Source: Bacteroidales bacterium
Lineage (GTDB): Bacteria > Bacteroidota > Bacteroidia > Bacteroidales > FEN-979
Assembly (NCBI GenBank): GCA_030681475.1
Contig: JAUXWT010000071.1
Span: 33,347 to 97,346, forward strand
Direction of reading: 5' to 3'
DNA length: 64,000 nt
In this document: piece by piece, positions 1 through 60,126 of the stretch
How the letters are laid out: every line of letters starts with the position of its first letter
Numbering within the stretch: position 1 is the first letter of the stretch
The notes under the pieces: generated by a model
Databases searched by the model: none
Seen by the model: only the letters and a program-made list of their open reading frames with translations
Told to the model about the DNA's origin: nothing
Made by a program: the position numbers and the translations under genes

Positions 1-2478
1 CATCTTTTGTTATATGGCGCCATTTGGACCAATGCCAATGCACCAATCCCGGCAGGCAATACAGCCATTTTTGACAGGTATGCCCGTTCGATGATCGCAA
101 GGGAAGCGGCTTTTGCTTATCTGATGGACCGGAAGTTTTCATCCAGCACCATAATTCCATTATCCCAGAATGACCGGGATTCTCTGCTTACCCGCGTTCT
201 CGGTCTTCTTGAGCAAATGAACACCGATGTGGATGTAGGTACTTTCTGGACTTTTTACAATCCGTGGCAGCACAGGTCAAAGGAACTCATTTCCTATCTC
301 ATTGCTTACGACCTGATGAAAGGCGCCGGTGTGTCACAACCACTGCTTGAAGCCTCAAAAGCAAAATTGATTACATTTTCGGCCAACCTCTATCAGAAAG
401 CATTGGCAACCTATACTTTCCTGAACCTGAAATTTTTTACCTACCAATTTAATAATCATAGTATTATGACAGCATCTGCCCTCGGCCTGGCAGCAATAGT
501 ATTCAATGATTATTCAAATGCCAATGTGAATTATCAGCCCCTGAACTGGATCAATGCCGGACTCTATAACCTGGATAATACCCTGTGGATGGAGAGTGGC
601 ATCTATCCGCGCGTGTCGGAACCGGACACCCTGGCAGGTTATGCAGAAGGACCACATTATTTTAAATATGCCTTCGAAAATGCCTTTCCATTTATACGTG
701 CTTTTGGTAATTTTCTTCCGGATGGTTACTATCCGGCCACGTTCAACAACACGACCAGAAACATCTGTAATCCATGGTTTGATACGCGATACGACCACCT
801 TTACGATTGGATGAACAAGATTCGGATGCCCGACGGGAGTTGTCCGGCCATACATGACGCCTACATGGGCTTTGGAACCGTCATTATGGCCTTGTCGGGA
901 AAGCCGCAATTTAACCGGCTCAATCCGGGCTTTACCCCTGATGATCCCTTTATCCGGACGCAGTATGTTTCGACAAATGTTTCGCATGGCCCCATTACGG
1001 ATAGCCTTTTTCAGCCAATGCCCGCAGCGGGAAGCCTGGTTTTTCGTTCATCATGGGAACCTTCGGCAGTGTATATGCACTTTATCGGCAAGCATGGGAT
1101 AGCCCTTACCGGCGCTAAAGCACACCACCAGGGAGATGCTTCCAGTTTTTCGCTGATGGCATATGGTGAACTTCTGGCCGTCGATCCGGGATATCCCGGA
1201 TCCTCACTGGCCGAACTCGAAAATAAAGCCACCGATCACAGCCTCATCCTTGTCAACGGAAACGGGCCATTGCCGCCTACCGGCGAGTTTGTCAGTACTT
1301 CAACCAATTCAGCTTATATCGAAAATTATTTTCATACGCCACTGCTCGACTACGGTGAAGTAAGGGTGGCATACCAGGGCGCAGAAATCATCAGGAAAAA
1401 CCTGTTCGTCAGAAACAAGTATTTTCTTCTTTCCGATTTTGTATCATCTGCAACGCCAAAGAATTACACCTTTCAACTGCATGGGAACGGATTATATGGA
1501 GGCACACCTTCGTCAACCACCGGGGCTTTCATTCCTGATTTCGGCAATGCCCGTGGCATTTATTCAAGGAACGCAGTTTCGCTGCTTGCACAGGTTACTG
1601 CACCCGGAGATGCTTCGGGATATGCTTATGAACTGGACAGCATGGCTATCGACGGTGGGTTCAGAAGATATTCAAAAATGCTTGTGCAAAAGAACAATAT
1701 CAACAATACGCTTTTTCTTTCCGTTCTGTTTCCGTATAATGCAAATTCTCCGATTGTTTTACCGGCAAGCCAGGGCGCTGCTGCCGCCTCAGTGAGAATT
1801 CAGGAGGATAATTTCAGGGATTTGGCTTTCTTTTCGAATAATGGCGTCCTTCACTCCATATCCGGAGACTCTTCGGGTATGAACAATCCGGTAAAGGGCA
1901 ATGGGAAGATCAATTTCCTGTCGGAAACTTCAGAGGGTAGTTTTTCTTCCGCATTTCTGCAAAATGGCGACAGTATCATTGCCGGAAATCAAACTATTAT
2001 CGGGACAGGAACTAAAATGGATGTTGCATGGATGAAATTCGATTCAGTTCTATCAGGCGGATATGTTTCCAATGGAGGCATCGTTAAATTTCACGCAGAT
2101 AAAATAATGCAGGCCCTTCGCGGACCGGTATCCACAATATCATATGACACTGTGAATCAATTGCTGGTGGTTATTTTCACCGGTAAAGGAAATTTTGTTT
2201 TCGGAAACCCGGATATGACCTGGGTATGGACCGGTCAGGCAAACGAAGATTGGCACAATCCGGAAAACTGGAAAATGCTTGACCATGAGTTTATTCAGGG
2301 GGTGCCGGTTGCAACAAATAATGTGATCATTCCCTCCGGTGTGATCAACATGCCGGTCGTAACTTCTGTTGGTTCAGCCAGTTGTCATAATCTCACCATC
2401 CACCCGGGAGCGGTGTTGACGATTGAGTTATTGAAGTTCCTAAGTGTTGAGGGAACCTTAACAATAGAATCTAACTAA
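1..2478 (+). CDS. heparinase II/III-family polysaccharide-lyase-like protein (5' end outside window)
   Basis: The reading frame stays open through nt 1-6, so the listed TTG at nt 7 is probably not the true start. A central HHQGDASSFSL...VDPGYPG motif is typical of the heparinase II/III C-terminal domain, and it follows a helical N-H-containing region. The C-terminal tail carries a WTGxxxxDWxNPxNW motif. No T9SS CTD is visible. Confidence 0.55.
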   Translation, partial: HLLLYGAIWTNANAPIPAGNTAIFDRYARSMIAREAAFAYLMDRKFSSSTIIPLSQNDRDSLLTRVLGLLEQMNTDVDVGTFWTFYNPWQHRSKELISYLIAYDLMKGAGVSQPLLEASKAKLITFSANLYQKALATYTFLNLKFFTYQFNNHSIMTASALGLAAIVFNDYSNANVNYQPLNWINAGLYNLDNTLWMESGIYPRVSEPDTLAGYAEGPHYFKYAFENAFPFIRAFGNFLPDGYYPATFNNTTRNICNPWFDTRYDHLYDWMNKIRMPDGSCPAIHDAYMGFGTVIMALSGKPQFNRLNPGFTPDDPFIRTQYVSTNVSHGPITDSLFQPMPAAGSLVFRSSWEPSAVYMHFIGKHGIALTGAKAHHQGDASSFSLMAYGELLAVDPGYPGSSLAELENKATDHSLILVNGNGPLPPTGEFVSTSTNSAYIENYFHTPLLDYGEVRVAYQGAEIIRKNLFVRNKYFLLSDFVSSATPKNYTFQLHGNGLYGGTPSSTTGAFIPDFGNARGIYSRNAVSLLAQVTAPGDASGYAYELDSMAIDGGFRRYSKMLVQKNNINNTLFLSVLFPYNANSPIVLPASQGAAAASVRIQEDNFRDLAFFSNNGVLHSISGDSSGMNNPVKGNGKINFLSETSEGSFSSAFLQNGDSIIAGNQTIIGTGTKMDVAWMKFDSVLSGGYVSNGGIVKFHADKIMQALRGPVSTISYDTVNQLLVVIFTGKGNFVFGNPDMTWVWTGQANEDWHNPENWKMLDHEFIQGVPVATNNVIIPSGVINMPVVTSVGSASCHNLTIHPGAVLTIELLKFLSVEGTLTIESN

Positions 2479-2491
2479 TCGATTCTGATTG

Positions 2492-2926
2492 TTAGAACGT
2501 TATCGTGTATTCATAAGAAACCGGGCCAGGCTTGGGCTGATCCGGCACATTGCTTTTTCCAGGATCGCTCTTTTTTGAGGTTGTATAACTGATTTCCACC
2601 CCAACCGGTAATTTGAAACTGATTTTTGTCTTTGTAGTCATTTTTACACGGACTCCCCGGTTTTTCACTTTTTCGAAACGGAGCAGACTCACAACCCGCA
2701 TGGCCTCTTCATCGCAACCATGACCGATCCCTTTCAATACCCGCGGATGCTGTACGATTCCGGTGTCGTGAATATCGTATTCAACGATTACAATTCCTTC
2801 CACCTGTGCTTCAAGCGCTGCATCAGGGTATCGCAGATTGGCGGCAATGAACTCCCTGAAAGCCTTGCTGCCACCGGTATATTTTGGCAGGTTCAGGAAT
2901 TTTTTTTTATGGTGATGATCCTGCAT
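2492..2926 (-). CDS. TonB C-terminal-domain protein (no obvious TM or Pro-rich region)
   Basis: The sequence FREFIAANLRYPDAALEAQVEGIVIVEYDI...G.V..PRVLKGIGHGCDEEAMRVV is the TonB_C fold signature. The protein is 144 aa and lies convergent with the upstream gene. Confidence 0.6.
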   Translation of the reverse strand: MQDHHHKKKFLNLPKYTGGSKAFREFIAANLRYPDAALEAQVEGIVIVEYDIHDTGIVQHPRVLKGIGHGCDEEAMRVVSLLRFEKVKNRGVRVKMTTKTKISFKLPVGVEISYTTSKKSDPGKSNVPDQPKPGPVSYEYTITF

Positions 2927-14123: not shown

Positions 14124-17100
14124 ATGAAGACACTGATTTTAAAAATACTACCACTGTTGTTCCTGATCGTTTGGCCGGGTATCCTGATGTCCCAAACGAT
14201 CACGACAACGGCCGGCTCCGTAACAAGTTGTCCCGGTCAGATCGTGGTCCCGGTCAACGTGACCGATTGTAACGGGATCGGAGCGATCTCGCTGATTCTG
14301 AATTTTGATGACACAAAGTTGATATACAATGGTTATCAAAATCTGAACAGCGCTCTGACTGTCGGATTGCTGATCATCAATTCTGTAGCAAACAAGGTGG
14401 TCATCAGTTGGGCCAACACCACCGCGGCGAACCTTGGCAACAGTACCATGGTTGAACTGAAATTCAACGCGGCGCCGAGTACGACAAGCCTGGCCTGGGA
14501 CCTGACACCCGGAAACTGTGAGTACAGCGATGTATTGGGCAACGTCCTTCTTGCCACTTTTACAAATGGTACAGCAACAATAAATTCACCGCCGGAGATA
14601 AACATTCAGCCTGTCGATAAAACCGCACTGGTCGGGCAGAATACATCTTTTACCGTTTCGGCAACAGGAACAGGGTTAGCGTACCTGTGGCAGATCAGTA
14701 CCAACGGAGGGGCAAACTGGAGCGATCTGACAAACGGAGCACCCTATTCCGGGGTAACCTCTCCCACTCTGACCATTACAAACGTTCTGTTCGCCTACAA
14801 CGGCTATCAATACCGTTGCAGGCTTACGGGCACTTGTACGCCGGTAATTTATACCAACGAGGTCACGCTGTCAGTCATCGATCCGATTACGACAACATTA
14901 CCGACAGCAAGTTTCTGTCCGGGAAATATCATCGTTCCTGTAACGGTGACAAATTTCACCGGGGTTGCCACTTTTTCATTGACCTTTTCCTACAATACGT
15001 CCTGCTTGAACTACAACGGTTTTCAAAATTTGAATGGAACACTTTCAGGAGGTACGTTTGTGGCCAATGCAGCAGACGGCAAGGTGTATATGACCTGGTC
15101 ATCCACCACCCCGGTCACTTTTGGAGACGGGACACTGGTGGAGCTCCAGTTTGCTGCAACCACGGGAACAAGCAGCCTGGTGTGGGATGTGGCAACTGCC
15201 GGCAACTGTGAATACTCAGCCCTGAGCGGGTCAAGCATCACGGCTGTCTTTGTCAACGGGAATGAGACCATATACGGACTGCCGGCTGTTACCGCGCACC
15301 CGTTAAATAAAATCATAGCAAAGGGACAGAACACCACTTTCAGCATATCAGCTACCGGATCTGGACTTACCTATTTATGGCAGGTTAGTACAAATGGCGG
15401 TGCAAATTTCAATGATCTGGCGAACGGAGGATATTACTCAGGTGTAACTTCAACAACGCTGACCATTACCAGCGCACAACTTGTATTAAGCGGAAACCAG
15501 TATCGGTGCAGGGTAATAGGCACCTGTTCGCCCGTTGCTTTTTCTAACCCGGGGGTACTGATAGTTTTACCTAATGTTATTACCACATGTGGCACAGTTA
15601 CAGGTTGTCCGGGGCAAAGCATCATCCCGGTCAATGTAACCGATTTTATCGGCGTCGCCTCCTTTTCCATGACCTTGAACTACAACCCCTCCGTCTTGAC
15701 CTATGCCGGATACCAGCTCTTTAACGCAGCGCTATCTGGAGGAAGTTTTGCCATCAATGCATCAGGGGGAAAGATTTACCTGACATGGTCAAGTACAACA
15801 GCGGTCACCCTTACCACCGGGGCATTGCTCATAGAGTTGAAGTTTGATGGTGTTTCTGGGTCAAGCCCCTTGACCTGGGATACACCGACTCCCGGTAACT
15901 GCGAATATAGTGACCTCAACGGACAGGTAATCTTTTCAACATGGAACAACGGGAATGTAACCATCAACGTATCGCCTGTAATTATTACACATCCTGCAAA
16001 TAAGACCATTTATGCCTCAGGCAGTACCTCGTTTTCGGTTACAGCAACCGGTACCGGACTCGGATATTTGTGGCAGGTAAGTACCGATGGAGGTACAAAC
16101 TGGATGAACCTCACAAATTCATCACCATACTCAGGTGTAACTACCTCCACATTAACCATAAACCCTGCTTCAACTGGTATGAATGGCTACCAATACCGTT
16201 GTAAAGTTTCAGGTAATTGTTCGTTGTATATTTCAACAAACCTTTTACTGCAAGATGATACAGTAGCCAACGGACAGACGTATTGCTACAACGCGACTCA
16301 GGCCATTACGGTTGCCGGTAACGGAACCAAATTTATTGTTCAGAATGGTGGCAGTGCCTCCATGGTCGCCGGACAAAAAATCAGTTATCTGCCCGGAACC
16401 ATTGTTAATTCAGGCGGATATATGCATGGATCCATCACAACGACAGGACAGTATTGCATTGCGCAACCACTTATATCTAATTCTGCCCAACTGGTTGTGA
16501 CACAGGTGCCAGTAACCACCTCATCCGGTACAATAACGAATTCCTGCACCGGGAATCTGATTATTCCGGTCAGCGTGTCGAACTGTCTGAATGTCGGAAG
16601 TATATCCCTGACAATGATCTTTGATACCACGAAGATGACTTTTGAAGGGTACCAGGGGGTCAACACTGAACTTTCAGGCGGATTTCTGGTTGTCAATCGT
16701 GCGAGTAACAGGGTAATATTGTCATGGGCATCAACAACGGCCGCCAACGTCGGATCCGGAGTCTTGATTCAATACAGGTTTAAAGCCAACTCAGGAATTT
16801 CGTCAACCATATCCTGGGACACGCAAACCGCGGGGGCTTGTGAATATGCTGACATCAACGGGACTGTCATCACATCATTTTACAACACCAGTAACATCAC
16901 GATCCTTACAAATGCGCTGATCGTTAATGCCGGTTCGGATTTGATCAAGACAGGAAGCCCTGTTCAACTCAACGGCTCCGCAACCGGAGCAACGACGCCA
17001 TACACCTGGTTATGGTCACCGGCAGGGTCTTTAAATAACCCGGCAATACCAAATCCGATGGCCTCACCTGTGGTAACCACCGCGTACACGTTGACTGTAA

Positions 17101-17687
17101 CTGCCAACAATGGCTGTGTTGGTACCGATGTGATGAATGTCATGGTGGATGAGGTTCCCACAAACCTGGTACTTCAGGATATCACGATTCCCAATGGAGT
17201 CAGTAACTGTTACAATGCTTTACAGACCATTAACGTTGCTGGCGGCGGAACAATTTTCATTGTTGAAAATGGAGGCAGCGCAGTTATGATCGCAGGGCTT
17301 AAAATTAATTATCTTCCCGGAACAAAGGTTTACCCGGGCGGATACCTTCATGGATACATCACCACAACCGGAGATTATTGCAATACACTCCTTGCCCCTG
17401 AGATCCTGACCATTGAGGAAAATTCTCATGCTCCCACGGATGGGACCATATTCAGGATTTACCCAAACCCGACTACCGGCCAGTTCAATATTGTACTGAA
17501 AGAGAACGATTTACCCGGAAATGTCTATGTTACGGTGTATGGTTCCAGAGGTGAAATAATACTTAGTGATGTCATGATGCGTGATCTTCACAAAGGATTC
17601 TCACTTTCCGGCCAACCGTCAGGGCTGTATTTTGTAAGGGTTGTTAGCGGGAATAAGGGTTTTACAGGAAAACTGATCAAACAGTAA
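14124..17687 (+). CDS. 1187-aa scaffoldin-like secreted protein: 4 cohesin-like modules interleaved with 3 Ig-like modules, 2 copies of a novel ~70-aa module, T9SS CTD
   Basis: It has a signal peptide. The cohesin-like core CPGQ.(I/V).(V/I)PV.V(T/S)(D/N)(C/F)..(I/V)(G/A).(I/F)S(L/M) occurs 4 times. Three Ig-like modules match P..K....GQNT.F.(V/I)SATG.GL.YLWQ(I/V)ST(N/D)GG.N...L.N...YSGVT..TLTI....L..NGYQYRC. The duplicated module is LQD.T(V/I).NG...CYNA.Q.I.VAG.GT.FIV.NGGSA.M(V/I)AG.KI.YLPGT.V..GGY.HG.ITTTG.YC. The CTD is FRIYPNPTTGQFNIVL...GLYFVRVV. Confidence 0.7.
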   Translation: MKTLILKILPLLFLIVWPGILMSQTITTTAGSVTSCPGQIVVPVNVTDCNGIGAISLILNFDDTKLIYNGYQNLNSALTVGLLIINSVANKVVISWANTTAANLGNSTMVELKFNAAPSTTSLAWDLTPGNCEYSDVLGNVLLATFTNGTATINSPPEINIQPVDKTALVGQNTSFTVSATGTGLAYLWQISTNGGANWSDLTNGAPYSGVTSPTLTITNVLFAYNGYQYRCRLTGTCTPVIYTNEVTLSVIDPITTTLPTASFCPGNIIVPVTVTNFTGVATFSLTFSYNTSCLNYNGFQNLNGTLSGGTFVANAADGKVYMTWSSTTPVTFGDGTLVELQFAATTGTSSLVWDVATAGNCEYSALSGSSITAVFVNGNETIYGLPAVTAHPLNKIIAKGQNTTFSISATGSGLTYLWQVSTNGGANFNDLANGGYYSGVTSTTLTITSAQLVLSGNQYRCRVIGTCSPVAFSNPGVLIVLPNVITTCGTVTGCPGQSIIPVNVTDFIGVASFSMTLNYNPSVLTYAGYQLFNAALSGGSFAINASGGKIYLTWSSTTAVTLTTGALLIELKFDGVSGSSPLTWDTPTPGNCEYSDLNGQVIFSTWNNGNVTINVSPVIITHPANKTIYASGSTSFSVTATGTGLGYLWQVSTDGGTNWMNLTNSSPYSGVTTSTLTINPASTGMNGYQYRCKVSGNCSLYISTNLLLQDDTVANGQTYCYNATQAITVAGNGTKFIVQNGGSASMVAGQKISYLPGTIVNSGGYMHGSITTTGQYCIAQPLISNSAQLVVTQVPVTTSSGTITNSCTGNLIIPVSVSNCLNVGSISLTMIFDTTKMTFEGYQGVNTELSGGFLVVNRASNRVILSWASTTAANVGSGVLIQYRFKANSGISSTISWDTQTAGACEYADINGTVITSFYNTSNITILTNALIVNAGSDLIKTGSPVQLNGSATGATTPYTWLWSPAGSLNNPAIPNPMASPVVTTAYTLTVTANNGCVGTDVMNVMVDEVPTNLVLQDITIPNGVSNCYNALQTINVAGGGTIFIVENGGSAVMIAGLKINYLPGTKVYPGGYLHGYITTTGDYCNTLLAPEILTIEENSHAPTDGTIFRIYPNPTTGQFNIVLKENDLPGNVYVTVYGSRGEIILSDVMMRDLHKGFSLSGQPSGLYFVRVVSGNKGFTGKLIKQ
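14190..16240. repeat. three tandem ~690-bp cohesin-like + Ig-like units
   Basis: The conserved PV(N/T)VT(D/N) codons recur at about 14250, 14940 and 15625. A fourth cohesin-like copy sits at about 16570 after an insertion. The copies are diverged at DNA level and conserved at protein level. Confidence 0.65.
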
Positions 17688-17735
17688 GGGTATTGGATTG
17701 AGCCTGTTAGGCAAGTAGTATATTTTATACAGGAT

Positions 17736-18209
17736 TTAATAGAGGGTTTTGTCCGTTTTTTCGGTCCACTCTTTAAACAGTTCAAGTGCCAACGGGTTAT
17801 CAATCTGCCGGAAACTGATTTTTCTTTGTTCCGGAAGAAGGTTCAATTCTTCGTAGATGTGATAGTCTTTAAATCCAATTGATGCGGCATCGTGGCGTGT
17901 TGAACAATAATAAACCGACTGTATGTTAGCCCAATAAATTGCAGAAAGACACATTGGGCAAGGTTCGCAGGTTGCATATAGGATGGCTCCGGTGAGGTCG
18001 AAATTCCCGATTTTCCGGCATGCCTCCCTGATGGCGACGATTTCGGCATGTGCAGTCGGATCATTCTGCGAACTGACCTGGTTTCCACCTTTCCCAATGA
18101 CTTTTCCATTCATCACGACAATGGCGCCAAAGGGTCCGCCAACATTGTTCCTAACTGTATAAAAAGCTTCATTGAATGCTTCGTTCAGGTAATTGTCAAC
18201 AACTTCCAT
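17736..18209 (-). CDS. guaD: guanine deaminase, cytidine-deaminase-fold type (B. subtilis GuaD-like)
   Basis: At 157 aa it is close to the ~156-aa B. subtilis GuaD. GGPFGAIVV..GK(V/I)IG.G.N.V....DPTAHAEI.AIREAC and the zinc motif CEPCPMCLSAIYWA, plus the C-terminal E..KTDKTLY tail, closely resemble GuaD as I recall it. It lies next to the purine-catabolic genes. Confidence 0.8.
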   Translation of the reverse strand: MEVVDNYLNEAFNEAFYTVRNNVGGPFGAIVVMNGKVIGKGGNQVSSQNDPTAHAEIVAIREACRKIGNFDLTGAILYATCEPCPMCLSAIYWANIQSVYYCSTRHDAASIGFKDYHIYEELNLLPEQRKISFRQIDNPLALELFKEWTEKTDKTLY

Positions 18210-18258
18210 CTCTGGTTTATTTATTAGATCATCATATTTTACATGGCCTTATCGGTTA

Positions 18259-18266
18259 CAAATTTA
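18259..18266 (-). promoter_or_regulatory. candidate -7 box TAAATTTG for guaD
   Basis: The minus-strand sequence gtTAAATTTGtaacc matches TAnnTTTG about 50 nt upstream of the guaD ATG (18209). Confidence 0.3.
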
Positions 18267-18351
18267 ACAGGTAAAATGGCTTGAAATACATTTCATGCAT
18301 GATCTTCCTCCTTTTTTGACATTTTCAGGGGCAATTCTCATGCTTTATCTC

Positions 18352-18359
18352 TAATTTTG
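18352..18359 (+). promoter_or_regulatory. candidate -7 box TAATTTTG for the ygfK operon
   Basis: It matches TAnnTTTG 33 nt upstream of the GTG start at 18392, in the divergent guaD/ygfK spacer. Confidence 0.3.
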
Positions 18360-18391
18360 GGGGCAGTATATTCACCTGAATTAATAAAAAA

Positions 18392-21300
18392 GTGTCAGGA
18401 AAATTTCATCCGATACCTCTTCCGGGCCTCTTAAGATTAACACTTGCCGAAATCAGTCAAAACAGATTTATGGGAATTCCCGGTAGTTTGTTCTACCGGC
18501 CGCACCCTACCGATCGTTTTGGATTTACGAGATATGGACGATACCTTGAAACGCCCATCGGAGTGGCTGCAGGGCCTCACACACAGTTGGCGCTTAACAT
18601 AGTTGCCGCCTGGCTTTGCGGTGCCCGGTATATTGAGTTAAAGACCGTCCAGACCCTGGATGAACTCGAAGTCTCAAAACCCTGCATCGACATGCAGGAC
18701 GAGGGTTACAACTGTGAGTGGTCCCAGGAACTTAAAGTGAATGAGTCCTTTGCTGAGTACCTCAACGCCTGGATCATCATCCATATCCTTCATATTGAAT
18801 TGGGATTCACCGGATCAGTGGGAACGCTTTTTAACATGAGTGTGGGGTACAACCTTGAGGGGATCATGAATGCCAATGTCCAATGGTTTTTTGACCGGAT
18901 GCTGGATTGTAGTACAGAACTGGATAAAGCGAGAGAATCCATCAGGGGGATTTACCCTGGTATTGATAAGATAGATATCCCATCGAAAATATCGGATCAT
19001 GTTACCTTGAGCACCATGCATGGATGTCCGCCCGACGAGATTGAAAGGATCGGGCTATATCTGATCAGCGAAAAGAAATTACATACCACAATTAAATTAA
19101 ATCCAACATTACTTGGACCGGAAGTAATTCGCGGGTTGCTGAACACCAGGTTTGGCTTTTCCACTGTAGTTCCTGACACCGCTTTTGAACATGACCTGAA
19201 ATATCCGGATGCAATACAGATCATTGAATCGCTGGGGTTGGCTTCAGATAAAAACGGATTACAGTTTGGCGTAAAGCTTACCAACACCCTGGAATGTAAA
19301 AACAATAAAAATATTTTCGGGGACGGGGAGACCATGATGTACATGAGCGGCCGGGCGCTACATCCCATAAGCGTATTGCTGGCAAGGAAAATGCAGAATG
19401 ACATGGGGGGCAGCCTTGATATCTCTTTTTCTGCAGGTGCGGATTGTTTTAACGTTGCCGATGTGCTGGACTGTGGTATGAGACCGGTGACCGTGTGCAG
19501 CGATTTGCTGAAGCCCGGCGGATACGGGCGTTTATTTCAATATATTGAAAACCTTCGTTCACACAACCAGGTCAACAAGTCAGCTCTGCAAAACCTGAAT
19601 AATTATGCTGACAGGGTTGTCGATAATCCGGGTTATTATAAGCATTTATTGTCCGATCCCTCTATCAAGACTTCAAGGGAACTTGGTTGGTTTGACTGTA
19701 TTCATGCTCCGTGTACAGATACCTGTCCGACAAATCAGGACATTCCGGAATATATGCATCATACAGCGCATGATGATATTCCCGCGGCATTTGATACAAT
19801 TTTCATGACCAATCCCTTTCCATCAGTTACAGGAATGGTATGCGACCATTTGTGTGAGTTGAAATGCACCCGGGTAAATTTTGACAATGCATTGCATATC
19901 AGAGAGATCAAGAGGTTTGTGGCGGAAAACACCCCACCCCCATCCCCACCCCCAAAAGGAGAGGGGCAAGTGGCCCGGGCAGCCATTATCGGGGCTGGCC
20001 CGGCTGGTTTATCCTGTGGATGGTACTTACGCAATGCTGGTTTTGAGGTGGATATCTTTGAACAGAAAAATGTTGCCGGGGGCATGGTTTCTGCAGCCAT
20101 TCCCTCATTCCGGCTTACCGGCGAGGCCATTGATAACGATATACAACGGATACTGGCATCAGGGATTCATCTGCATGATAATCAATATATTGACGCCGCA
20201 CGTTTTAAGCTGCTCCAACGTGATTACGACCTCATTTTCCTGGCTGCAGGCGCTCAACAATCAATCAGACTGAATATCGAAGGAATAGACTCAAGCGGGG
20301 TGATTGATCCGCTGGAGTTTTTATTTGATGTCAGGCAAAATAAGACAACCAGGTTGGGTCAGCACGTGATCATCATTGGAGGTGGGAATACAGCCATGGA
20401 TTCCGCCCGCACTGCATTCCGGATGGTAGGAAAAGAGGGGAGTGTCACCATCGTTTACCGTCGCACGGTTAAAGAAATGCCCGCCGATCATGGTGAGATC
20501 AAAGCAGTGCAGGAAGAGGGGATCCGTATCATTGAGCTAGCCAATCCCGTTCGTGTTCAATCGGTCGGGGGCAGGGTTACCGGACTGTTATGTTCACGCA
20601 ACATCCTGACCTTGAATGGAAATGATGACAGGCCCTCCCCACGCGCCATCCCTGGTTCCGAATTTGAAATTTCATGCGATACCATTATTCCGGCCATTGG
20701 CCAGCAGATGGCGGTTGATTTTCTTGAGCATGATCAACTTCGTCCGGTTCAGGGAAGTTATAAAACAGGAGTTCCCAAACTTTACATCGGCGGAGATGCC
20801 ATGCGTGGCGCCTCGACAGCAATCAATGCCATCGCCGACGGCCGCAAAGCCGCAGAAGAAATCATAGCACAAACGGCGCACCTGCTCCCCTCCCCTGCAA
20901 GGGGAGGGGTCGAGTGTGGGGTAGAAGATATCCCCCAACTGATGCATCGCAAAGCGATCAGGGAATATGGAATTCATCCGGCAGAAACCGCCCTGGACAG
21001 GAGAAGGAATTTCGATCTGGTCATGTCATCCTTTACAGCAGAACAGGCAAAGACAGAGGCAGCACGGTGTTTGCGATGTGATGTGATCTGCAACGTATGT
21101 GTCTCGGTTTGCCCGAACCTGGCCAACTTCGGATACCGGGTCGAACCAGTGCGTTATTCGCTGGAAAAGGCAGTTTTAAATGAGGATGGCTCCATCGTAA
21201 TAGAAAAGGATAAGGTTTTTAAGGTTGATCAGCCATTTCAGATCCTTAACATCCGTGATCTGTGCAATGAATGTGGTAATTGTACTACATTTTGCCCGAC

Positions 21301-21628
21301 CAGCGGCAGGCCATTCGCCGATAAGCCCGGTATATTTCTTTCTGTGAAATCGTTGAACGAAGTGGGTACAGGCTTTCTTTTTAGTCAGCTTCCGGGAAAA
21401 CAGGCGCTGATTTATAGGGACAAGGAGAGTGTAAAAACTTTGAGTTTGATGGATGACAAATATGTGTATGAGACAGACCAGGTCACAGCGGTTATCAATG
21501 CAAAAGATTTCGCACTGCTTGATGTAAAGTTTCTGACACCGTGTGTTAAAGAATTCCACTTTGAATTTGCTGCAGAAATGAGTATAATATTGAATGGTGC
21601 AATGCAAATAACAGTGAATATTGAATAA
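18392..21628 (+). CDS. ygfK: YgfK-type Fe-S/flavin oxidoreductase (annotated 'putative selenate reductase subunit YgfK'; DPD-like TIM barrel + GltD-like FAD/NAD(P) domain + 2x[4Fe-4S])
   Basis: The N-terminus PIPLPGLL...FMGIPGSLFY...ETPIGVAAGPHTQLALNIVAAWLCGARYIELKTVQTLDELEVSKPCIDMQDEGYNCEWSQE aligns with E. coli YgfK as I recall it. It carries AIIGAGPAGLSCG (GxGxxG), IIIGGGNTAMD, and the motifs CLRCDVICNVCVSVCPN and CNECGNCTTFCP. At 1078 aa it compares with about 1030 aa in E. coli. The start codon is GTG. Confidence 0.88.
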   Translation: MSGKFHPIPLPGLLRLTLAEISQNRFMGIPGSLFYRPHPTDRFGFTRYGRYLETPIGVAAGPHTQLALNIVAAWLCGARYIELKTVQTLDELEVSKPCIDMQDEGYNCEWSQELKVNESFAEYLNAWIIIHILHIELGFTGSVGTLFNMSVGYNLEGIMNANVQWFFDRMLDCSTELDKARESIRGIYPGIDKIDIPSKISDHVTLSTMHGCPPDEIERIGLYLISEKKLHTTIKLNPTLLGPEVIRGLLNTRFGFSTVVPDTAFEHDLKYPDAIQIIESLGLASDKNGLQFGVKLTNTLECKNNKNIFGDGETMMYMSGRALHPISVLLARKMQNDMGGSLDISFSAGADCFNVADVLDCGMRPVTVCSDLLKPGGYGRLFQYIENLRSHNQVNKSALQNLNNYADRVVDNPGYYKHLLSDPSIKTSRELGWFDCIHAPCTDTCPTNQDIPEYMHHTAHDDIPAAFDTIFMTNPFPSVTGMVCDHLCELKCTRVNFDNALHIREIKRFVAENTPPPSPPPKGEGQVARAAIIGAGPAGLSCGWYLRNAGFEVDIFEQKNVAGGMVSAAIPSFRLTGEAIDNDIQRILASGIHLHDNQYIDAARFKLLQRDYDLIFLAAGAQQSIRLNIEGIDSSGVIDPLEFLFDVRQNKTTRLGQHVIIIGGGNTAMDSARTAFRMVGKEGSVTIVYRRTVKEMPADHGEIKAVQEEGIRIIELANPVRVQSVGGRVTGLLCSRNILTLNGNDDRPSPRAIPGSEFEISCDTIIPAIGQQMAVDFLEHDQLRPVQGSYKTGVPKLYIGGDAMRGASTAINAIADGRKAAEEIIAQTAHLLPSPARGGVECGVEDIPQLMHRKAIREYGIHPAETALDRRRNFDLVMSSFTAEQAKTEAARCLRCDVICNVCVSVCPNLANFGYRVEPVRYSLEKAVLNEDGSIVIEKDKVFKVDQPFQILNIRDLCNECGNCTTFCPTSGRPFADKPGIFLSVKSLNEVGTGFLFSQLPGKQALIYRDKESVKTLSLMDDKYVYETDQVTAVINAKDFALLDVKFLTPCVKEFHFEFAAEMSIILNGAMQITVNIE
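19931..19973. repeat. GC-rich palindromic-element copy inserted in frame in ygfK (encodes TPPPSPPPKGEGQV)
   Basis: ACCCCACCCCCATCCCCACCCCCAAAAGGAGAGGGGCAAGTGG is related to the reverse complement of 20881-20925 and to the intergenic copy at 39048-39095. It lies immediately 5' of the GxGxxG codons. Confidence 0.6.
20881..20925. repeat. GC-rich palindromic-element copy inserted in frame in ygfK (encodes LLPSPARGGVECGV)
   Basis: The core CCCCTCCCC-TGCAA-GGGGAGGGG (20887-20909) is a perfect 9-bp GC stem. It is followed by TCGAGTGTGGGGTA, which resembles the TCAGGGGTTGAGGTA arm of the copy at 39048-39095. Confidence 0.65.
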
Positions 21629-21669
21629 AAAACATTGAAAAGTGAATAAATAACAGTGAATAGTTATGA
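21607..21669. repeat. 7-nt-period tandem array spanning the ygfK stop and the next ATG
   Basis: The units read aataaca gtgaata ttgaata aaaaaca ttgaaaa gtgaata aataaca gtgaata gttatga. The 14-mer AATAACAGTGAATA occurs twice (21607-21620 and 21649-21662). Confidence 0.6.
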
Positions 21670-23138
21670 TACCAATTATTAAGAATGTTGTTGATCAGGC
21701 AGTGCTGGAAAAGGCCATTGGCCATTACCGCGAAAAGGGAATCATCCTGCCGACTTTCGCCCAGATGCAAAACCCGGACCTAATTCCCGGTAGCATCAGG
21801 GATAGATTGAAGAACATCGGCCTGTGGGATCTTCATCCCCTGAATTTATTCAGGATAACCTGGAAAAATGAACCGAAGGCCTCCGGAGGATTATTTGGGG
21901 CGCCTAATTTTATTGTGTTGCCGAAGGAGCTCACCGGAATTGATACTCCCATCATTGTGATGCTTGGCAAATGGTTCCCGACCGGGGCACACAAGGTGGG
22001 CGCTGCCTATGGATGCCTGGCCCCCCGCATCATCACCGGTGGGTTCGATCCGACTTATCATAAAGCGGTATGGCCGTCAACCGGAAACTATTGCCGCGGT
22101 GGCGCCTTTGATTCCTATCTCATGGATGTAACCGCGGTGGCCATCCTTCCAGAGGAGATGAGCCGCGAACGGTTTGCCTGGCTTGAGGAGATCGGCGCCG
22201 AAGTGATCGCCACACCGGGTTGCGAGTCAAATGTGAAGGAGATATACGATAAATGCTGGGAGATCAGGCGTACACGGAAAGATTGTATCATTTTCAACCA
22301 GTTTGATGAATTTGGAAACTCATGCTGGCACCATGAAGTTACCGGTCATGCGATTGAAGAGGCGTTCAGGATGGTTGCGGGAAAGGATGCGCACTTGTCT
22401 GCCTATATTTCAGCAACCGGATCGGCGGGGACCATCGCTGCGGGAGATTATCTGCGAACCAAATTCCCCTCTATGAAAGTGGTTGCATCAGAGGCGCTGC
22501 AATGCCCCACACTGTTGATGAATGGTTTTGGCGGTCACCGGATCGAGGGGATCGGTGACAAGCATGTTCCATGGGTACACAACGTAAGGAATACCGATGT
22601 TGTTACGGCAATTGATGATGAAGATTGCATGCGGTTGCTGAGATTGTTCAATGAAAAAGCCGGACATGAATACCTTAAAGCCAATGGAGTTGATGGGGAG
22701 TTGGTGTCAATGTTATACACAATAGGCATTTCCGGGATCGGGAATATTTTATCAGCCATCAAAACCGCAAAACATTTTGAATTCACAAGTGAGGATATCA
22801 TGGTGACCATTGCCACAGATTCTGCCGAAATGTATGGCTCCAGAATTATGGAGCTGAACAGTGAACGCGGTTCCTATTCATCGATTCAGGCCGCACGGGA
22901 TCACGAGAAATGCATGTTGGGAAATGGTACTTCAAACATGAAAGAGCTCGGATACAGCGACCGGAAAGCAATTCATAACCTGAAATATTTCACCTGGATC
23001 GAACAGCAGGGAAAGGATGTGGAGGATTTACGCCAGTTGTGGGAGGATCGTCATATCTGGACGGAGATATTCAGCCAGCCTGCCCGCTGGGATGAACTGA
23101 TAAATGAATTCAATGAAAGAACTGGATTACTTAAATAA
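21666..23138 (+). CDS. fold-type-II PLP-dependent enzyme, long (490 aa) uncharacterised subfamily (cysteine synthase/Trp-synthase-beta superfamily)
   Basis: GKWFPTGAHKVGAAYGCL supplies a candidate PLP-Lys. WPSTGNYCRGGAFDS and SATGSAGTIAAGDYL (Gly-rich phosphate loop) are typical of the PALP fold. An extra ~120-aa C-terminal extension is present. The specific function is not recognisable. Confidence 0.6.
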   Translation: MIPIIKNVVDQAVLEKAIGHYREKGIILPTFAQMQNPDLIPGSIRDRLKNIGLWDLHPLNLFRITWKNEPKASGGLFGAPNFIVLPKELTGIDTPIIVMLGKWFPTGAHKVGAAYGCLAPRIITGGFDPTYHKAVWPSTGNYCRGGAFDSYLMDVTAVAILPEEMSRERFAWLEEIGAEVIATPGCESNVKEIYDKCWEIRRTRKDCIIFNQFDEFGNSCWHHEVTGHAIEEAFRMVAGKDAHLSAYISATGSAGTIAAGDYLRTKFPSMKVVASEALQCPTLLMNGFGGHRIEGIGDKHVPWVHNVRNTDVVTAIDDEDCMRLLRLFNEKAGHEYLKANGVDGELVSMLYTIGISGIGNILSAIKTAKHFEFTSEDIMVTIATDSAEMYGSRIMELNSERGSYSSIQAARDHEKCMLGNGTSNMKELGYSDRKAIHNLKYFTWIEQQGKDVEDLRQLWEDRHIWTEIFSQPARWDELINEFNERTGLLK

Positions 23139-23142
23139 AATG

Positions 23143-23293
23143 TGGCTAAAGCCAATGGCTCAGAAACCCATCAATAACAGTTGGCTGAAGCCAACTGCAA
23201 TAAATGGAGGAAAAGCAAAATCTGTTGGTATTTATTGCAGTCAGCTTTAGCTGACTGATTAAGGGATGACTTAATAATTGGGGCTTTAGCCCC
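23143..23293. repeat. ~150-bp dyad-symmetric element made of four tetraloop hairpins plus a central 12-bp inverted repeat
   Basis: H1 is TGGC-TAAA-GCCA (23143-23154). H2 is GTTGGC-TGAA-GCCAAC (23180-23195). The central pair is ACTGCAATAAAT / ATTTATTGCAGT (about 23194-23205 and 23230-23241). H3 is GTCAGC-TTTA-GCTGAC (23240-23255). H4 is GGGGC-TTTA-GCCCC (23280-23293). Confidence 0.7.
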
Positions 23294-23328
23294 ATTAATG
23301 AGAAAATAATTTCAGAAATATTTTAAAC

Positions 23329-24633
23329 ATGCCTGAAAAATTCCACTTTGAATGTGTAAACTGTAAAACTGAATATCCCGGCGACAAGGTCATCTATTTG
23401 TGTCCATCATGCGAAGCGTTGAACAAACCCGGCATTCCCCCGCAGGGTGTTCTGAAGACCATATACCCTTATGAAAAAATTCGCGGCTCAAATCCTGTGA
23501 ATAACCTTTTTGAACGGTTGCAGCGCGAACAGTTTCTTTCATTGCTGCCAATTAAAGGGATGAATTCATGGACTGGATTGCATGTCGGGGATACACCTTT
23601 ATACAAGGTGGACAAGTGGACAGGTGGGCAGGCGGACAGGCGGACAGACGGACAGGCGGACAGGCGGGGGGATGAGTTTGAGATTTACCTGAAAGATGAT
23701 TCGCAGAATCCAACATTTTCTTTTAAGGATCGAGCTTCAGCGCTTGTTTCGGCCTGGGCGCGTGAAAATGGAATAAAAACCCTGGTCGCTGCTTCCACCG
23801 GAAATGCTGGATCGTCACTCGCAGGTATTTGTGCATCACAGGGACAAAAGGCGATGATCGTCGTGCCTGCAGCGGCACCGCTGGCCAAACTTACACAGAT
23901 ACTCATGTATGGAGCAACGCTGGTTCCGGTCAGGGGTACTTATGATGATGCTTTCGACCTGAGCGTGCAGATCTCTGAAAAATATGGTTATTATAACCGG
24001 AATACAGCCTATAATCCACTTACCATTGAAGGCAAAAAGACAGTTTCATTCGAACTGTTCCACCAACTCGGAAACCAGGTTCCAGACCGGATCTTTATCC
24101 CGGTTGGGGATGGGGTCATCTTTTCCGGTGTTTGCAAGGGATTTGAAGATCTGCTGAAACTTGGGATCATCAGCCGGATGCCGGTTCTGGTAGCAGTTCA
24201 GGCGGAAGGGAGCAGCAACCTGATCAACAATTTGAAAAACGACTCATTCGATGTCAAGCCATCCAGGACAATTGCCGATTCTATTTCCGTGGATGCGCCC
24301 CGATGTTTCTTCCTGACACGTGACTATATTGAGAAATATCACGGGGAGTCTGTTTCAGTATCAGACCAGAAAATTTTGACGGCATCGCTTCATCTTTCTC
24401 ATTCAAGGGGAATATTTTCCGAACCTGCAGCGGTTGCAGCTTATGCCGGCATGTTGAAATATCGCGATCAGGGATTGATCCCGCCCGGTACAAAAAATGT
24501 GGTGTTGCTCACCGGAAGCGGACTGAAAGATCTGACCGCCGTTCAATCATCCATCCAAATACCGGAGGCTGTTGAGCCGGATATCCGATCGGTTGAAGCA
24601 ATTATCCAAAGGCATTTTTCACATAAATCCTGA
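23329..24633 (+). CDS. threonine-synthase-like PLP enzyme with N-terminal Zn-ribbon
   Basis: A CxxC...CxxC ribbon (CVNCKTEY...LCPSCEA) starts the protein. The PLP-Lys motif is NPTFSFKDRAS, followed by ASTGNAGSSLA. Length and order are typical of the ThrC family. It contains a low-complexity insert, GGQADRRTDGQADRRGDE. Confidence 0.7.
   Translation: MPEKFHFECVNCKTEYPGDKVIYLCPSCEALNKPGIPPQGVLKTIYPYEKIRGSNPVNNLFERLQREQFLSLLPIKGMNSWTGLHVGDTPLYKVDKWTGGQADRRTDGQADRRGDEFEIYLKDDSQNPTFSFKDRASALVSAWARENGIKTLVAASTGNAGSSLAGICASQGQKAMIVVPAAAPLAKLTQILMYGATLVPVRGTYDDAFDLSVQISEKYGYYNRNTAYNPLTIEGKKTVSFELFHQLGNQVPDRIFIPVGDGVIFSGVCKGFEDLLKLGIISRMPVLVAVQAEGSSNLINNLKNDSFDVKPSRTIADSISVDAPRCFFLTRDYIEKYHGESVSVSDQKILTASLHLSHSRGIFSEPAAVAAYAGMLKYRDQGLIPPGTKNVVLLTGSGLKDLTAVQSSIQIPEAVEPDIRSVEAIIQRHFSHKS
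23608..23671. repeat. 8 x 8-nt tandem repeat inside the ThrC-like CDS
   Basis: The units read GTGGACAA GTGGACAG GTGGGCAG GCGGACAG GCGGACAG ACGGACAG GCGGACAG GCGGGGGG. Confidence 0.85.
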
Positions 24634-39013: not shown

Positions 39014-39047
39014 ATTCTTTAGTGTTTGTATTAATAATGGCGGATTG

Positions 39048-39095
39048 ACCTCAACCTTACCCTCTCCTGAAGGAGAAGGGGTCAGGGGTTGAGGT
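39048..39095. repeat. complete copy of the GC-rich palindromic element (two-helix hairpin) between ABC ATPase and permease genes
   Basis: The sequence is ACCTCAACC-tta-CCCTCTCC-tgaa-GGAGAAGGG-gtcag-GGTTGAGGT. The outer 8-bp helix pairs 39049-39056 with 39087-39094. The inner helix pairs 39060-39067 with 39072-39080 and has one bulge. Confidence 0.75.
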
Positions 39096-58113: not shown

Positions 58114-60126
58114 TCAAATCTCTGTTTCTTCAAATTCCACAAGCGCCGTAACAGTCTCCACCCGTTCGTTTACCGATACGTTCACGGATTTCACAACGGC
58201 ATCACGGGGGGATACGATCAGGTTTTCCATTTTCATGGCTTCGATGATCAGGAGCGGGTCTCCTTTTTTTACGCTTTCGCCACCCTTGACCTGTATCCTG
58301 ATCACCTTTCCGGGCATGGGAGAGGTAACGTGGTTGCTGTCATGCCCATGCATGTCAAATCCGGATGAAAATACCGATTCGGCGAGAATATCATGACGTT
58401 TCAATCTGAAAATATGACCATGACAGCTTACATAAGCTTGATTTTCAGAATCTTCAGATACCCAGACTATGTAGTTGTGGTGATCGACCGTAAAATCGAT
58501 GCGGTTTGGTGAATAGGCAATGGGAGATGAATGAAACGCTTTTCCCCTGATTTCAAATAAAAAATTATTTTCAGCATACCCAGGAACCTTCACAGTGACC
58601 TCCATCTCTTCGAATTGAAGTCTGATATTCATTAAGTTACGCCAATATCCGACAGTCTCCCAGAGATTGGGTTTTTCGAACCAACCCGGAATTGTTTTGA
58701 GGTTGCGTTTCAGGGTGAACATCAGGTAGCCAATCATGGGGACATGATCCGGGATTTCGTTTTTATCATTAATGATTTCCTTGGTAAGCGCTGCAGTGTG
58801 TTCATCACAGAATTTCGTGGTAATGGTGTTGGAAATAAATGCTTCACTCTGCAGTAACTTGACCAGGTAGGTGATGTTTGTCCTGATGCCGTGGATGATA
58901 TAGTCTTCTAACGCCAACAGCATGATCTGGCTGGCTTCATGCCGGTCTTTTCCCCAAACGATGAGCTTGCATATCATCGGGTCGAAAGAGCTTTTAATTT
59001 CCGTGTTGGCTGTAATACCGGTGTCTATCCGGATTCCCGGGATTTCGGGTTCTTTGTAGAAGGTCATCCTGCCTGGTGATGGCTGGAAATTATTGGCAGG
59101 GTCTTCAGCATAGATCCGGCATTCGATGGCATGACCGTGTTGATGAATATCCTTTTGTTGTAACCTGAGCTTATTCCCGGCTGCCACGTGGATCTGTTCC
59201 TCAACCAGGTCGATTCCGGTAACCATTTCAGTTACAGGATGTTCAACCTGGATTCGGGTGTTCATCTCAAGGAAATAATAATTTAAATCTTTATCAACCA
59301 GGAATTCGATGGTGCCCGCGTTGTTGTATCCGATGGCCTTCCCGATGGCAACGGCTGCCGCACCCATTTTTTCACGTATTTCCGGGGTGAGGGTCGGGGA
59401 GGGAGATTCTTCGATAATTTTCTGGTATCGCCGCTGGATGGAACATTCACGCTCATAAAGGTGTATTACATTCCCAAAATTGTCACCCAGTATCTGAATC
59501 TCGATATGACGAGGTTCTTCAACGAATTTTTCGATATATACAGTCTCGTCACCGAAATAGGCCAGCGCCTGGCGGCTGGTTGCCTCAATAGCTTCCGCAA
59601 GTTCGCTTTCCTTGTAAACGATACGCATCCCCTTGCCGCCACCTCCTGCTGCGGCTTTTAGCAATACCGGAAACCCGATCTTGTGCGCTGTCTTTTCAAG
59701 TTCCTGCTTTGTCCCGGTTACGCCATCGGTCATCGGGATTTTAATCTTTTTAACGAAGGCACGTGCCTCGATCTTGTTCCCCATGATCTTCATAGCTTCG
59801 GGATGTGGGCCGATAAAGATGATCCCGGCTTCAACACACGCTTCTACGAATAAAGGATTTTCTGCCAGGAAACCATATCCGGGGTGGATGGCATCACAGC
59901 CTGTCTGTAAGGCCACATCAATGATCTTCGGAATGTTCAGATAGGTGTCGCTGAGTTCAACCTCTCCGATGCACCAGGATTCATCGGCCATGGTAACATG
60001 TAATGAGTCGGCATCAACTTGCGAATATATTGCCACAACCTTGATCCCTAATTTTTTCGCGGAGCGGATTACCCGTACGGCGATTTCGCCCCGGTTCGCG
60101 ATGAGTATTTTGTGAATAACGTTCAT
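58114..60126 (-). CDS. biotin-dependent acyl-CoA carboxylase alpha subunit (biotin carboxylase + BCCP; methylcrotonyl-CoA carboxylase by context)
   Basis: KILIANRGEIAVR and the ATP-grasp motif GGGGKGMR are present, along with EMNTRIQVEHPVTE. The C-terminal biotinyl-Lys motif is IIEAMKMEN. Confidence 0.9.
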   Translation of the reverse strand: MNVIHKILIANRGEIAVRVIRSAKKLGIKVVAIYSQVDADSLHVTMADESWCIGEVELSDTYLNIPKIIDVALQTGCDAIHPGYGFLAENPLFVEACVEAGIIFIGPHPEAMKIMGNKIEARAFVKKIKIPMTDGVTGTKQELEKTAHKIGFPVLLKAAAGGGGKGMRIVYKESELAEAIEATSRQALAYFGDETVYIEKFVEEPRHIEIQILGDNFGNVIHLYERECSIQRRYQKIIEESPSPTLTPEIREKMGAAAVAIGKAIGYNNAGTIEFLVDKDLNYYFLEMNTRIQVEHPVTEMVTGIDLVEEQIHVAAGNKLRLQQKDIHQHGHAIECRIYAEDPANNFQPSPGRMTFYKEPEIPGIRIDTGITANTEIKSSFDPMICKLIVWGKDRHEASQIMLLALEDYIIHGIRTNITYLVKLLQSEAFISNTITTKFCDEHTAALTKEIINDKNEIPDHVPMIGYLMFTLKRNLKTIPGWFEKPNLWETVGYWRNLMNIRLQFEEMEVTVKVPGYAENNFLFEIRGKAFHSSPIAYSPNRIDFTVDHHNYIVWVSEDSENQAYVSCHGHIFRLKRHDILAESVFSSGFDMHGHDSNHVTSPMPGKVIRIQVKGGESVKKGDPLLIIEAMKMENLIVSPRDAVVKSVNVSVNERVETVTALVEFEETEI

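Follow-up and report, generated by a model that had tools for sequence, protein, structure and literature searches.

In-frame GC-rich elements in a Bacteroidales ygfK gene as probable copies of the widespread BoxC/PIT repeat family

How does the gene of a conserved enzyme carry two GC-rich, palindrome-like elements in frame and remain intact, and what are these elements? The question is raised by ygfK of a Bacteroidales bacterium (GenBank assembly GCA_030681475.1, contig JAUXWT010000071.1), of which a stretch of 64,000 nucleotides (nt), hereafter the window, was analysed. The gene occupies positions 18392-21628 on the plus strand, encodes 1078 amino acids (aa) from a GTG start (a separate gene call begins 26 codons downstream) and is identified as YgfK by TIGR03315 (Se_ygfK; 855 bits versus a cutoff of 835). 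An earlier note on this DNA had described two in-frame elements in ygfK, and sequence and translation confirmed that both lie inside the intact open reading frame (ORF). They are referred to here as elements A and B, and a related intergenic copy elsewhere in the window as element C. We consider it likely that A, B and C are copies of the widespread GC-rich BoxC/PIT/triplex-motif (TM) repeat, those in YgfK occupying tolerant linkers and serving as spacer only.

A profile made from the element copies of relatives was searched against the window using nhmmer and returned exactly three copies, namely B (E = 2e-8), C (39046-39094, E = 1e-6) and A (minus strand, E = 2.6e-5), which upheld the earlier claim of a third, intergenic relative. 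The pattern CCCYNYCC-N3-7-GGRNRGGG matched A and B only in the 64 kb, against 0.0 matches expected from 100 dinucleotide shuffles, and a generic detector of pyrimidine-purine-purine (Y-R-R) modules matched B (20888-20921) and C (39049-39079). Element B (20881-20925, plus strand; translated as LLPSPARGGVECGV) has the order Y-loop-R-spacer-R, CCCCTCCCC-TGCAA-GGGGAGGGG-TC-GAGTGTGGGG. It contains the perfect stem reported earlier, a 10-bp hairpin at 20887-20909 on the plus strand (CCCCTCCCCT/GCA/AGGGGAGGGG, the 10 bp including the flanking T-A pair) with a predicted RNA folding energy of -29.1 kcal/mol (z = -2.2), whilst its third block is damaged (GAGTGTGGGG versus GGGGGTGGGG in the orthologous copy of locus L003). 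Element A (19931-19973, plus strand; CACCCCACCCCCATCCCCACCCCCAAAAGGAGAGGGGCAAGTG, translated as TPPPSPPPKGEGQV) has decayed: its blocks follow the order Y-Y-loop-R on the coding strand (CCCCACCCCC-AT-CCCCACCCCC-AAAA-GGAGAGGGG), and the proper second block is missing from its minus strand, CCCCTCTCC-TTTT-GGGGGTGGGG-AT-GGGGGTGGGG. Its minus-strand hairpin is degraded to six Watson-Crick pairs, two G-T pairs and one mismatch, the RNA fold of the mRNA strand scores z = +0.4, and the strand opposite the coding strand holds four G-tracts (GGGGGTGGGGATGGGGGTGGGG). Element C (39048-39095, no strand assigned) is a full-length palindrome, ACCTCAACC-TTA-CCCTCTCC-TGAA-GGAGAAGGG-GTCA-GGGGTTGAGGT, with a Y-R-R module on each strand, a one-base bulge in its hairpin (CCCTCTCC/TGAA/GGAGAAGGG) and RNA folds at z = -3.6 and -4.5, one per strand.

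Element C is intergenic within an ABC-transporter operon, between an ATPase gene (stop at 39098) and a permease gene (start at 39013), both on the minus strand. A terminator reading of C was rejected, because the element is internal to the operon, separated by 3 nt from the ATPase stop and by 35 nt from the permease start, and lacks a T-run. A known structured-RNA identity for the elements was also rejected, as an Rfam 15 scan of the window returned nothing at gathering thresholds and, around C, chance-level matches only (CRISPR-DR57 and a microRNA, E ≥ 1.8). A fourth candidate at 59386-59403 (GGTGAGGGTCGGGGAGGG) resembles two purine blocks and has no hairpin partner. It was set aside as a chance look-alike; its minus strand encodes the conserved motif ...EESPSPTLTPE... 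of a 670-aa minus-strand gene, a motif that we take to be that of biotin carboxylases.

Both elements bracket the FAD/NAD(P) domain of YgfK, in agreement with the earlier note. Pfam domains comprise Fer4_20 (residues 435-513), Pyr_redox_2 (residues 530-817) and Fer4/C-terminal Fe-S motifs; element A ends two codons upstream of AAIIGAGPAG, and element B starts 14 residues past the end of the Pyr_redox_2 match at residue 817. The coding segment of this domain (19979-20842, plus strand) aligns along its whole length with E. coli YgfK and with 120 homologues and is, by that alignment, integral to YgfK, conserved universally and not cargo. In an AlphaFold model of the protein (mean predicted local distance difference test, pLDDT, 88.8; predicted template modelling score, pTM, 0.86), residues 513-528 at site 1 form a coil between a helix (503-512) and the Rossmann strand beta1 (529-533), and residues 834-842 at site 2, after the FAD/NAD(P) domain, are the sole internal stretch with pLDDT below 50. 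Both sites are predicted to be coil or disordered linkers. An independent assembly, Logan contig L001, carries a ygfK identical to that of the window.

The earlier note had also set the two elements in opposite orientation and suggested inversion or deletion between them. As they stand, A (two pyrimidine blocks and one purine block) and B (one pyrimidine block and two purine blocks) are indeed mirror images, but their relative orientation is uninformative because the complete element is a palindrome, and A and B align with scores of 38 (direct) and 37 (inverted). Recombination between them is not supported: the longest exact word shared by A and B is 7 nt, which makes homologous recombination implausible; every YgfK possesses the intervening domain, so that its inversion would destroy the enzyme; and relatives show all orientation combinations.

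In the surroundings of the gene, window 14124-24633 shows a gene order reminiscent of the E. coli ygfK-ssnA-ygfM-xdhD cluster (L204, E. coli 3016060-3024186). On L001, two PALP genes come after ygfK, and an xdhD-like molybdopterin/Fe-S gene lies beyond them. In relatives, amidohydrolases follow.

To which family do the elements belong? The linkers and flanks of ygfK in relatives contain a common unit, CCYCACCCCC-NN-CCCCTCYCC-loop-GGRGAGGGG-NN-GGGGGTGRGG, of which coding copies often lack one outer block. The 3' purine block mirrors the purine arm of the hairpin, as is characteristic of an intramolecular triplex of the purine motif. Holder et al. (2015, PMC4666352) describe CCCTCNCCC-N3-6-GGGNGAGGG-N3-GGGNGAGGG as BoxC/PIT/TM_ECO, a G/C-rich class II triplex motif that was named BoxC in the 1990s and described as PIT (potential intrastrand triplex) elements by Hoyne and Maher in 2000-2002. 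According to the same study, 23 copies occur in E. coli MG1655, 'always located intergenically', and 3610 in 262 proteobacterial genomes; a single-stranded E. coli oligonucleotide forms a triplex in vitro, whilst none was detected in vivo; and the elements have neither promoter nor terminator activity, nor a link to mobile elements, and are associated with local indel variation (PMC4666352). Judged on broad architecture, A, B and C are members of this family at the sequence level. A pyrimidine block of ~9 nt, a 3-6 nt loop and a complementary purine block were found in each (perfect in B, bulged in C, degraded in A), followed by a short spacer and a mirrored second purine block compatible with G*G-C, A*A-T and T*A-T triads. 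Mirror triads of the purine motif are formed at 9/9 positions in C, 8/9 in A (minus strand) and 7/9 in B, in comparison to 9/9 in the L003 orthologue of B.

A cross-phylum scan (one genome per species) with the core GGRGAGGGGNNGGGGGTGRGG retrieved at least 120 stretches with at least 145 matches, and the resulting loci are thus selected for the repeat. The core was thereby found in more than ten phyla, and the matches listed included Alpha-, Beta- and Gammaproteobacteria, Chloroflexota, Cyanobacteria, Bacteroidota, Planctomycetota, Acidobacteriota, Armatimonadota, Firmicutes and the candidate phyla radiation (CPR), and nearly all of those listed had an upstream CTCCCCTCYCC with a 3-7 nt loop. 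Variable purines co-varied among the matches listed (L084-L203): GGAGAGGGG was paired with GGGGGTGAGG in most phyla and GGGGAGGGG with GGGGGTGGGG mainly in Alphaproteobacteria, with a few mixed cases. This co-variation may reflect triplex geometry or two lineages of descent. G-quadruplex formation was rejected as a unifying property, since the commonest family variant (GGAGAGGGG..GGGGGTGAGG) lacks four clean G-tracts; a pattern of four tracts of at least three G fits the minus strand of A and many family cores (GGGGAGGGGCCGGGGGTGGGG), whereas B has three tracts.

The family consensus is open in four of the six frames, and in its translation Pro/Ser/Thr residues always precede Gly/Glu/Arg residues. 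For loci outside the window, 'in frame' denotes open reading frames combined with Pfam matches. Of the 145 matches listed, 25% lay in long open stretches, versus 62.5% of random control windows, so the family is depleted from coding sequence, yet present there. This included an intact Tex protein with one in-frame copy, SLPSPFGEGSGVRL (L100, Pfam), and, from translation, a long ORF with three tandem copies (L112). Neither in-frame BoxC/PIT copies in conserved enzymes nor BoxC/PIT repeats in Bacteroidales and many other phyla were found in the literature that could be searched. What is new is the context, namely translated copies and many phyla, the repeat family itself being already known. A family held to be strictly intergenic and mainly proteobacterial is thereby extended to many phyla and to translated copies in conserved enzymes.

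How did copies come to lie in these two linkers? We aligned 120 YgfK homologues (54-100% identity, all Bacteroidales or Bacteroidota-type proteins from metagenome-assembled genomes). In element-free homologues the linker lengths hardly vary, KRFVAE being separated from IIGAGPAG by 19 aa and GRKAAEEI from LMHRK by 23 aa (modal lengths), and the linkers (for example NYSGDLPGDHIKPNGKK) are otherwise unconserved in sequence. The linkers of the query are 19 and 25 aa long, so the protein has gained no length from the elements, and the earlier statement that they add Pro/Gly peptides holds for composition and not for net length. As had been predicted of lineage-specific insertions at domain linkers, the peptides are absent from ~65/120 of these homologues and from E. 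coli YgfK (35% identity), which has neither peptide and shows a 17-residue alignment gap at site 2.

Many relatives carry linker peptides of the PPAPPLGGEGR type or the LLPSPARGGVGGGV type, either type occurring at either site; the two are opposite strand readings of a single DNA sequence, and every combination of orientations at the two sites was present. Sister sequences differed in orientation at one site (P0092 versus P0091; P0053 versus P0025), and some homologues had tandem arrays of 2-4 copies, in linkers of up to 56-59 aa (P0002, P0022, P0032, P0016, P0029). At the DNA level, the linkers of relatives comprise family modules together with 33-nt tandem half-units, the tandem arrays having been read from L002, L005 and L026. 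In a quick neighbour-joining tree with linker columns masked, element peptides were concentrated in the clade of the query, with patchy losses, and occurred in at least four other clades. As read from their aligned sequences, these relatives have gained elements repeatedly and in either orientation, have arrayed them in tandem and have lost them.

Site 2 of L005 (5665-5841) and L026 (2793-2969) carries a decayed copy, then an array of 33-nt half-elements (ALMPSPPAPV repeats) and then an oppositely oriented full hairpin, a layout that indicates a second, independent gain with local amplification. Elsewhere, the amidohydrolase gene adjoining ygfK in L002 has, from translation, three tandem in-frame half-elements near its N-terminus (19098-19209; LTPGPSPGSLPLTPGPSPGSLPLSPGPSPMGRGE; LTPGPSPGSLP...), and L003 (358-436) has a compound intergenic element in which an outer stem, ACCCCATCCC/AGGGTGGGGT, encloses two different inner hairpins, resembling a copy inserted in a copy.

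The DNA of the elements is conserved beyond what their peptides require. The site-2 copies of the window, L003, L030, L016 and L002 are orthologous, because an identical 5' junction and the TGCAA loop are common to all, and they are at varied stages of decay. Between the window gene and its relatives, third-position identity at conserved four-fold residues was 0.40-0.48, meaning that synonymous sites are near saturation. In comparison, the core of element B was identical to that of L003 at 35/38 nt, including the loop and 9/9 third positions, whilst the linker flanks were ~57% identical. Peptide-level selection cannot explain this core conservation. Some action at the DNA level seems to keep the element near the family consensus, and it could be selection on the nucleic acid, gene conversion from other copies or re-insertion.

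We propose the following course of events. In the repeat unit, a short loop joins a pyrimidine block to its complementary purine block, and a further purine block, set off by 2-3 nt, mirrors the first, the full form having an extra complementary 5' pyrimidine block that makes it a ~48-nt palindrome. An ancestor of this Bacteroidales clade would have acquired one copy in each linker flanking the FAD/NAD(P) domain, these linkers perhaps being among the few places in the gene that tolerate a flexible peptide of ~15 aa. The copies would then have been inherited and, in some lineages, re-inserted or amplified. In the lineage of the window they may have been trimmed to the preferred linker length and may now be decaying, with the third block of B and the second of A already damaged. 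Persistence would be due to a DNA-level process (concerted evolution or homing by machinery of the family) and not to selection on the enzyme.

Several observations weigh against this proposal. Across ~1.3 Mb around related ygfK genes, most copies were in ygfK linkers and few outside, a concentration that is unexpected for a randomly inserting element and may reflect long retention or site preference. The window itself has three copies in 64 kb, two of them within one gene. At the ygfK sites, neither a mechanism of insertion nor a duplicated target site nor a polymorphic empty site could be shown. The strict TM_ECO regular expression matched none of the three window copies, because the blocks of B are 4-1-4 (CCCCTCCCC), C combines CCCTCTCCT with a bulged purine block, and A lacks block 2, whereas the E. 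coli blocks are 3-3-3; by sequence, the window copies appear to be variants within the family and not E. coli-type TM_ECO elements. Finally, the strong conservation of element DNA could denote an unrecognised function. On balance we retain the proposal as likely. Its consequence for YgfK is modest: two interdomain linkers accept foreign sequence, and annotators are warned that their Pro/Gly peptides are repeat-derived.

What spreads such a repeat? To our knowledge, BoxC/PIT repeats have been known since 1992, and we know of no mobilising activity for them. One account, plausible enough to be set out in full although we hold it tentatively, is that the ygfK elements are relics or solo termini (a terminal inverted repeat or a derivative resembling a miniature inverted-repeat transposable element) of a selfish DUF559 (Vsr-like) cassette that inserts in frame. 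The ygfK copies would then be the remains after insertion and loss of the cassette, or the products of non-autonomous spread. This account refines the origin of the family and is compatible with the proposal above. It arises from DUF559 (PF04480) domains found in frame within methionyl-tRNA synthetase (MetRS; L090 2124-2636) and, at two different positions, within leucyl-tRNA synthetase (LeuRS; L101 6629-7083 and L178 6924-7408), all by Pfam (E = 1e-32 to 1e-34), each as a segment of ~110 aa between two elements. A further domain, detected using a custom profile, lies in frame in a 1188-aa ORF (L163 4546-5270). The DUF559 inserts are bounded on both sides by triplex-motif repeats translated as Pro/Gly linkers. 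Comparison of a filled with an empty LeuRS site delimited a 157-aa insert that starts with LTPNPSPKERG and ends with SPLLGRGVGGEV, both peptides encoded by the elements, with conserved flanks around it. In the 120 repeat-selected loci, all eight real DUF559 domains were within 170 nt of a module, most with a module on each side. The commonest architecture was CCTCACCCCC-NN-CCCCTCTCC-loop-GGAGAGGGG ... DUF559 ... CCCCTCTCC-loop-GGAGAGGGG-NN-GGGGGTGAGG, the ends of which are inverted repeats.

The association was also seen from the side of the nuclease. Fourteen loci were selected solely for similarity to DUF559, namely E. coli ycjD, the loci of three proteins of metagenomic or genomic origin, and ten 'plasmid' records spanning six classes. 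With a custom Y-R-R detector, a strict module was found within 250 nt of DUF559 in 9/14, and variant, short-block or mismatched modules were seen by eye in the other five. The density of strict modules was 19 in 11.6 kb of DUF559 loci versus 14 in 1.26 Mb of ygfK loci. In E. coli MG1655, ycjD (L205 = 1349000-1352500; gene at 2408-2761, minus strand) ends in ...NRRSPSP* within a degenerate module, CCCTCTCCC-TGAAAG-AGCGAGGGGG. At ~170 nt downstream, the spacer that separates ycjD from the start of fabI contains a second copy of the ycjD 3' end and, after it, the published TM_ECO #9 (BoxC). By eye, ~75 of 120 DUF559 proteins from a profile search end in ...PSPRPSP* or a similar element-type C-terminus. 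Milman et al. (2023, PMC9881135) list DUF559 among the families most enriched for flanking inverted repeats or predicted inversion targets, with an odds ratio of 14. A connection between DUF559 and BoxC/PIT was not found in the literature searched.

The DUF559 genes of Methylomonas, Azospirillum, Sphingomonas, Deinococcus, Klebsiella, Neisseria and Photobacterium (L206-L219) are flanked by Y-loop-R-spacer-mirror-R modules whose blocks vary by lineage, the third always mirroring the second (for example GGGAGAAGG..AGGATGAGGG, or, in cyanobacteria, the short-block form CCCCC-AGAA-TGGGGG-TCA-GGGGG). Regular arrays of up to 14 modules directly adjoin such genes (L219 1871-3312; L213 1995-2691; L209 997-1466), with a period of ~150 nt in Photobacterium and L209 and of ~280 nt in Neisseria gonorrhoeae.

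Against the nuclease account stand the absence of a DUF559 gene from the window and from ~80 ygfK loci, and of a DUF559 insert from all 120 aligned YgfK homologues. The reverse arrangement, with third blocks facing inward, is also present (L090, L170), so the modules are not simply fixed termini. No mobile-element link is reported in E. coli (PMC4666352), and the association is one of proximity alone. For ygfK, the lead bears on the origin of the repeat family and not on the locus itself. In its general form, which we put forward as possible rather than probable, BoxC/PIT repeats would be the termini or non-autonomous relics of a cross-phylum DUF559 PD-(D/E)XK cassette, their stop-free linkers allowing it to reside in MetRS, LeuRS, Tex and YgfK. 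If this were true, DUF559-directed cleavage or gene conversion at the repeats would explain why the consensus is nearly identical across phyla, why the ygfK copies are conserved better than synonymous sites and why local instability is reported around these repeats in E. coli. The flanking of DUF559 by these repeats offers a testable candidate both for what spreads or maintains BoxC/PIT and for what the common DUF559 proteins do.

Might the elements instead serve the host? An mRNA hairpin (-29 kcal/mol) together with the PPPSPPP stretch could pause ribosomes at domain boundaries and so aid co-translational folding or loading of the flavin cofactor. Both copies do lie exactly at domain boundaries, the hairpin of B is perfect and folds more stably than expected (z = -2.2), element DNA is conserved far beyond synonymous sites, and A encodes consecutive prolines, which are stalling motifs dependent on elongation factor P (EF-P). 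We nevertheless judge this function improbable, since E. coli YgfK and more than half of the close homologues (~65/120) lack the elements, the hairpin of A has decayed (z = +0.4), the hairpins of relatives are at all stages of decay, in both orientations and with losses, and the loop is conserved like the stems, which is unexpected under selection for structure. That the elements are ordinary low-complexity Pro/Gly linkers under protein selection, with palindromes as a by-product of codon choice, would suit the commonness of such linkers and the seeming constraint on their length (19 and 23 aa), but can hardly be correct and is already contradicted by the DNA module also being intergenic in the window and in many phyla, by two peptide types that are two strand readings of one DNA sequence, by the match to L003 at 9/9 third positions despite near-saturated synonymous sites and by a pattern expectation of 0.0 in shuffles.

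The reading of A, B and C as BoxC/PIT copies in tolerant linkers can be placed among known systems. With the BoxC/PIT elements of E. coli the window copies have in common a C-rich block, a loop of 3-6 nt and the G-rich complement of that block, followed after 2-3 nt by a mirrored G-rich block, and the blocks are near-identical (CCCTCTCCC / GGGAGAGGG / GGGGTGAGGG). The family as a whole has multiple copies in both orientations, includes paired or palindromic forms and is associated with local indel variation. The window copies differ in that the E. coli elements are reported as always intergenic and the family has been catalogued in Proteobacteria, whereas here two of three copies are translated, in Bacteroidales; window blocks are 4-1-4 or bulged and two of three copies are partly decayed. 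A triplex was shown for an E. coli oligonucleotide in vitro, and the window copies were scored for sequence compatibility with one.

Repetitive extragenic palindromic (REP) sequences and their hairpin-forming doublets (REPINs) have GTAG or CGTC heads, are extragenic and species-specific, and have as partner a REP-associated tyrosine transposase (RAYT), an IS200/IS605-type Y1 transposase. Likeness to them includes short GC-rich palindromes, singlets and inverted doublets forming long hairpins, and a repeat-flanked dedicated protein gene, and they serve as the model for the DUF559-repeat relationship proposed here. In contrast, the BoxC-type core is nearly identical across phyla, the family consensus has no conserved GTAG/CGTC head (B ends in GGGGTAG; its orthologues do not), and DUF559 is a PD-(D/E)XK Vsr-like nuclease and no Y1 transposase.

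Inteins and Vsr-like homing endonucleases provide a parallel for the DUF559 inserts of the related loci outside the window, being selfish endonuclease genes that reside in essential genes without inactivating them; the Vsr/DUF559 clan fold is a further likeness. The entry for the Vsr/DUF559/DUF2726 clan lists group I intron homing endonuclease among its functions (PMC3424549), and PMC2677866 concerns a Vsr-like homing endonuclease family. Unlike inteins and introns, the DUF559 inserts have no intein splicing blocks or intron context and appear to be simply translated.

Rickettsia palindromic elements, to which the earlier note had likened A and B, are a fair functional analogy without kinship: these too are palindromic repeats in frame in conserved genes, translated as surface or linker peptides with the protein preserved. 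They are reportedly ~100-150 bp long, AT-richer and restricted to Rickettsia, whereas the window elements measure 43-48 nt, occur in Bacteroidales, have a mirrored purine block, show no similarity to the Rickettsia elements in sequence or architecture and belong to the BoxC/PIT/triplex family. Translated BoxC-type copies would constitute a second, independent example of the behaviour of Rickettsia palindromic elements.

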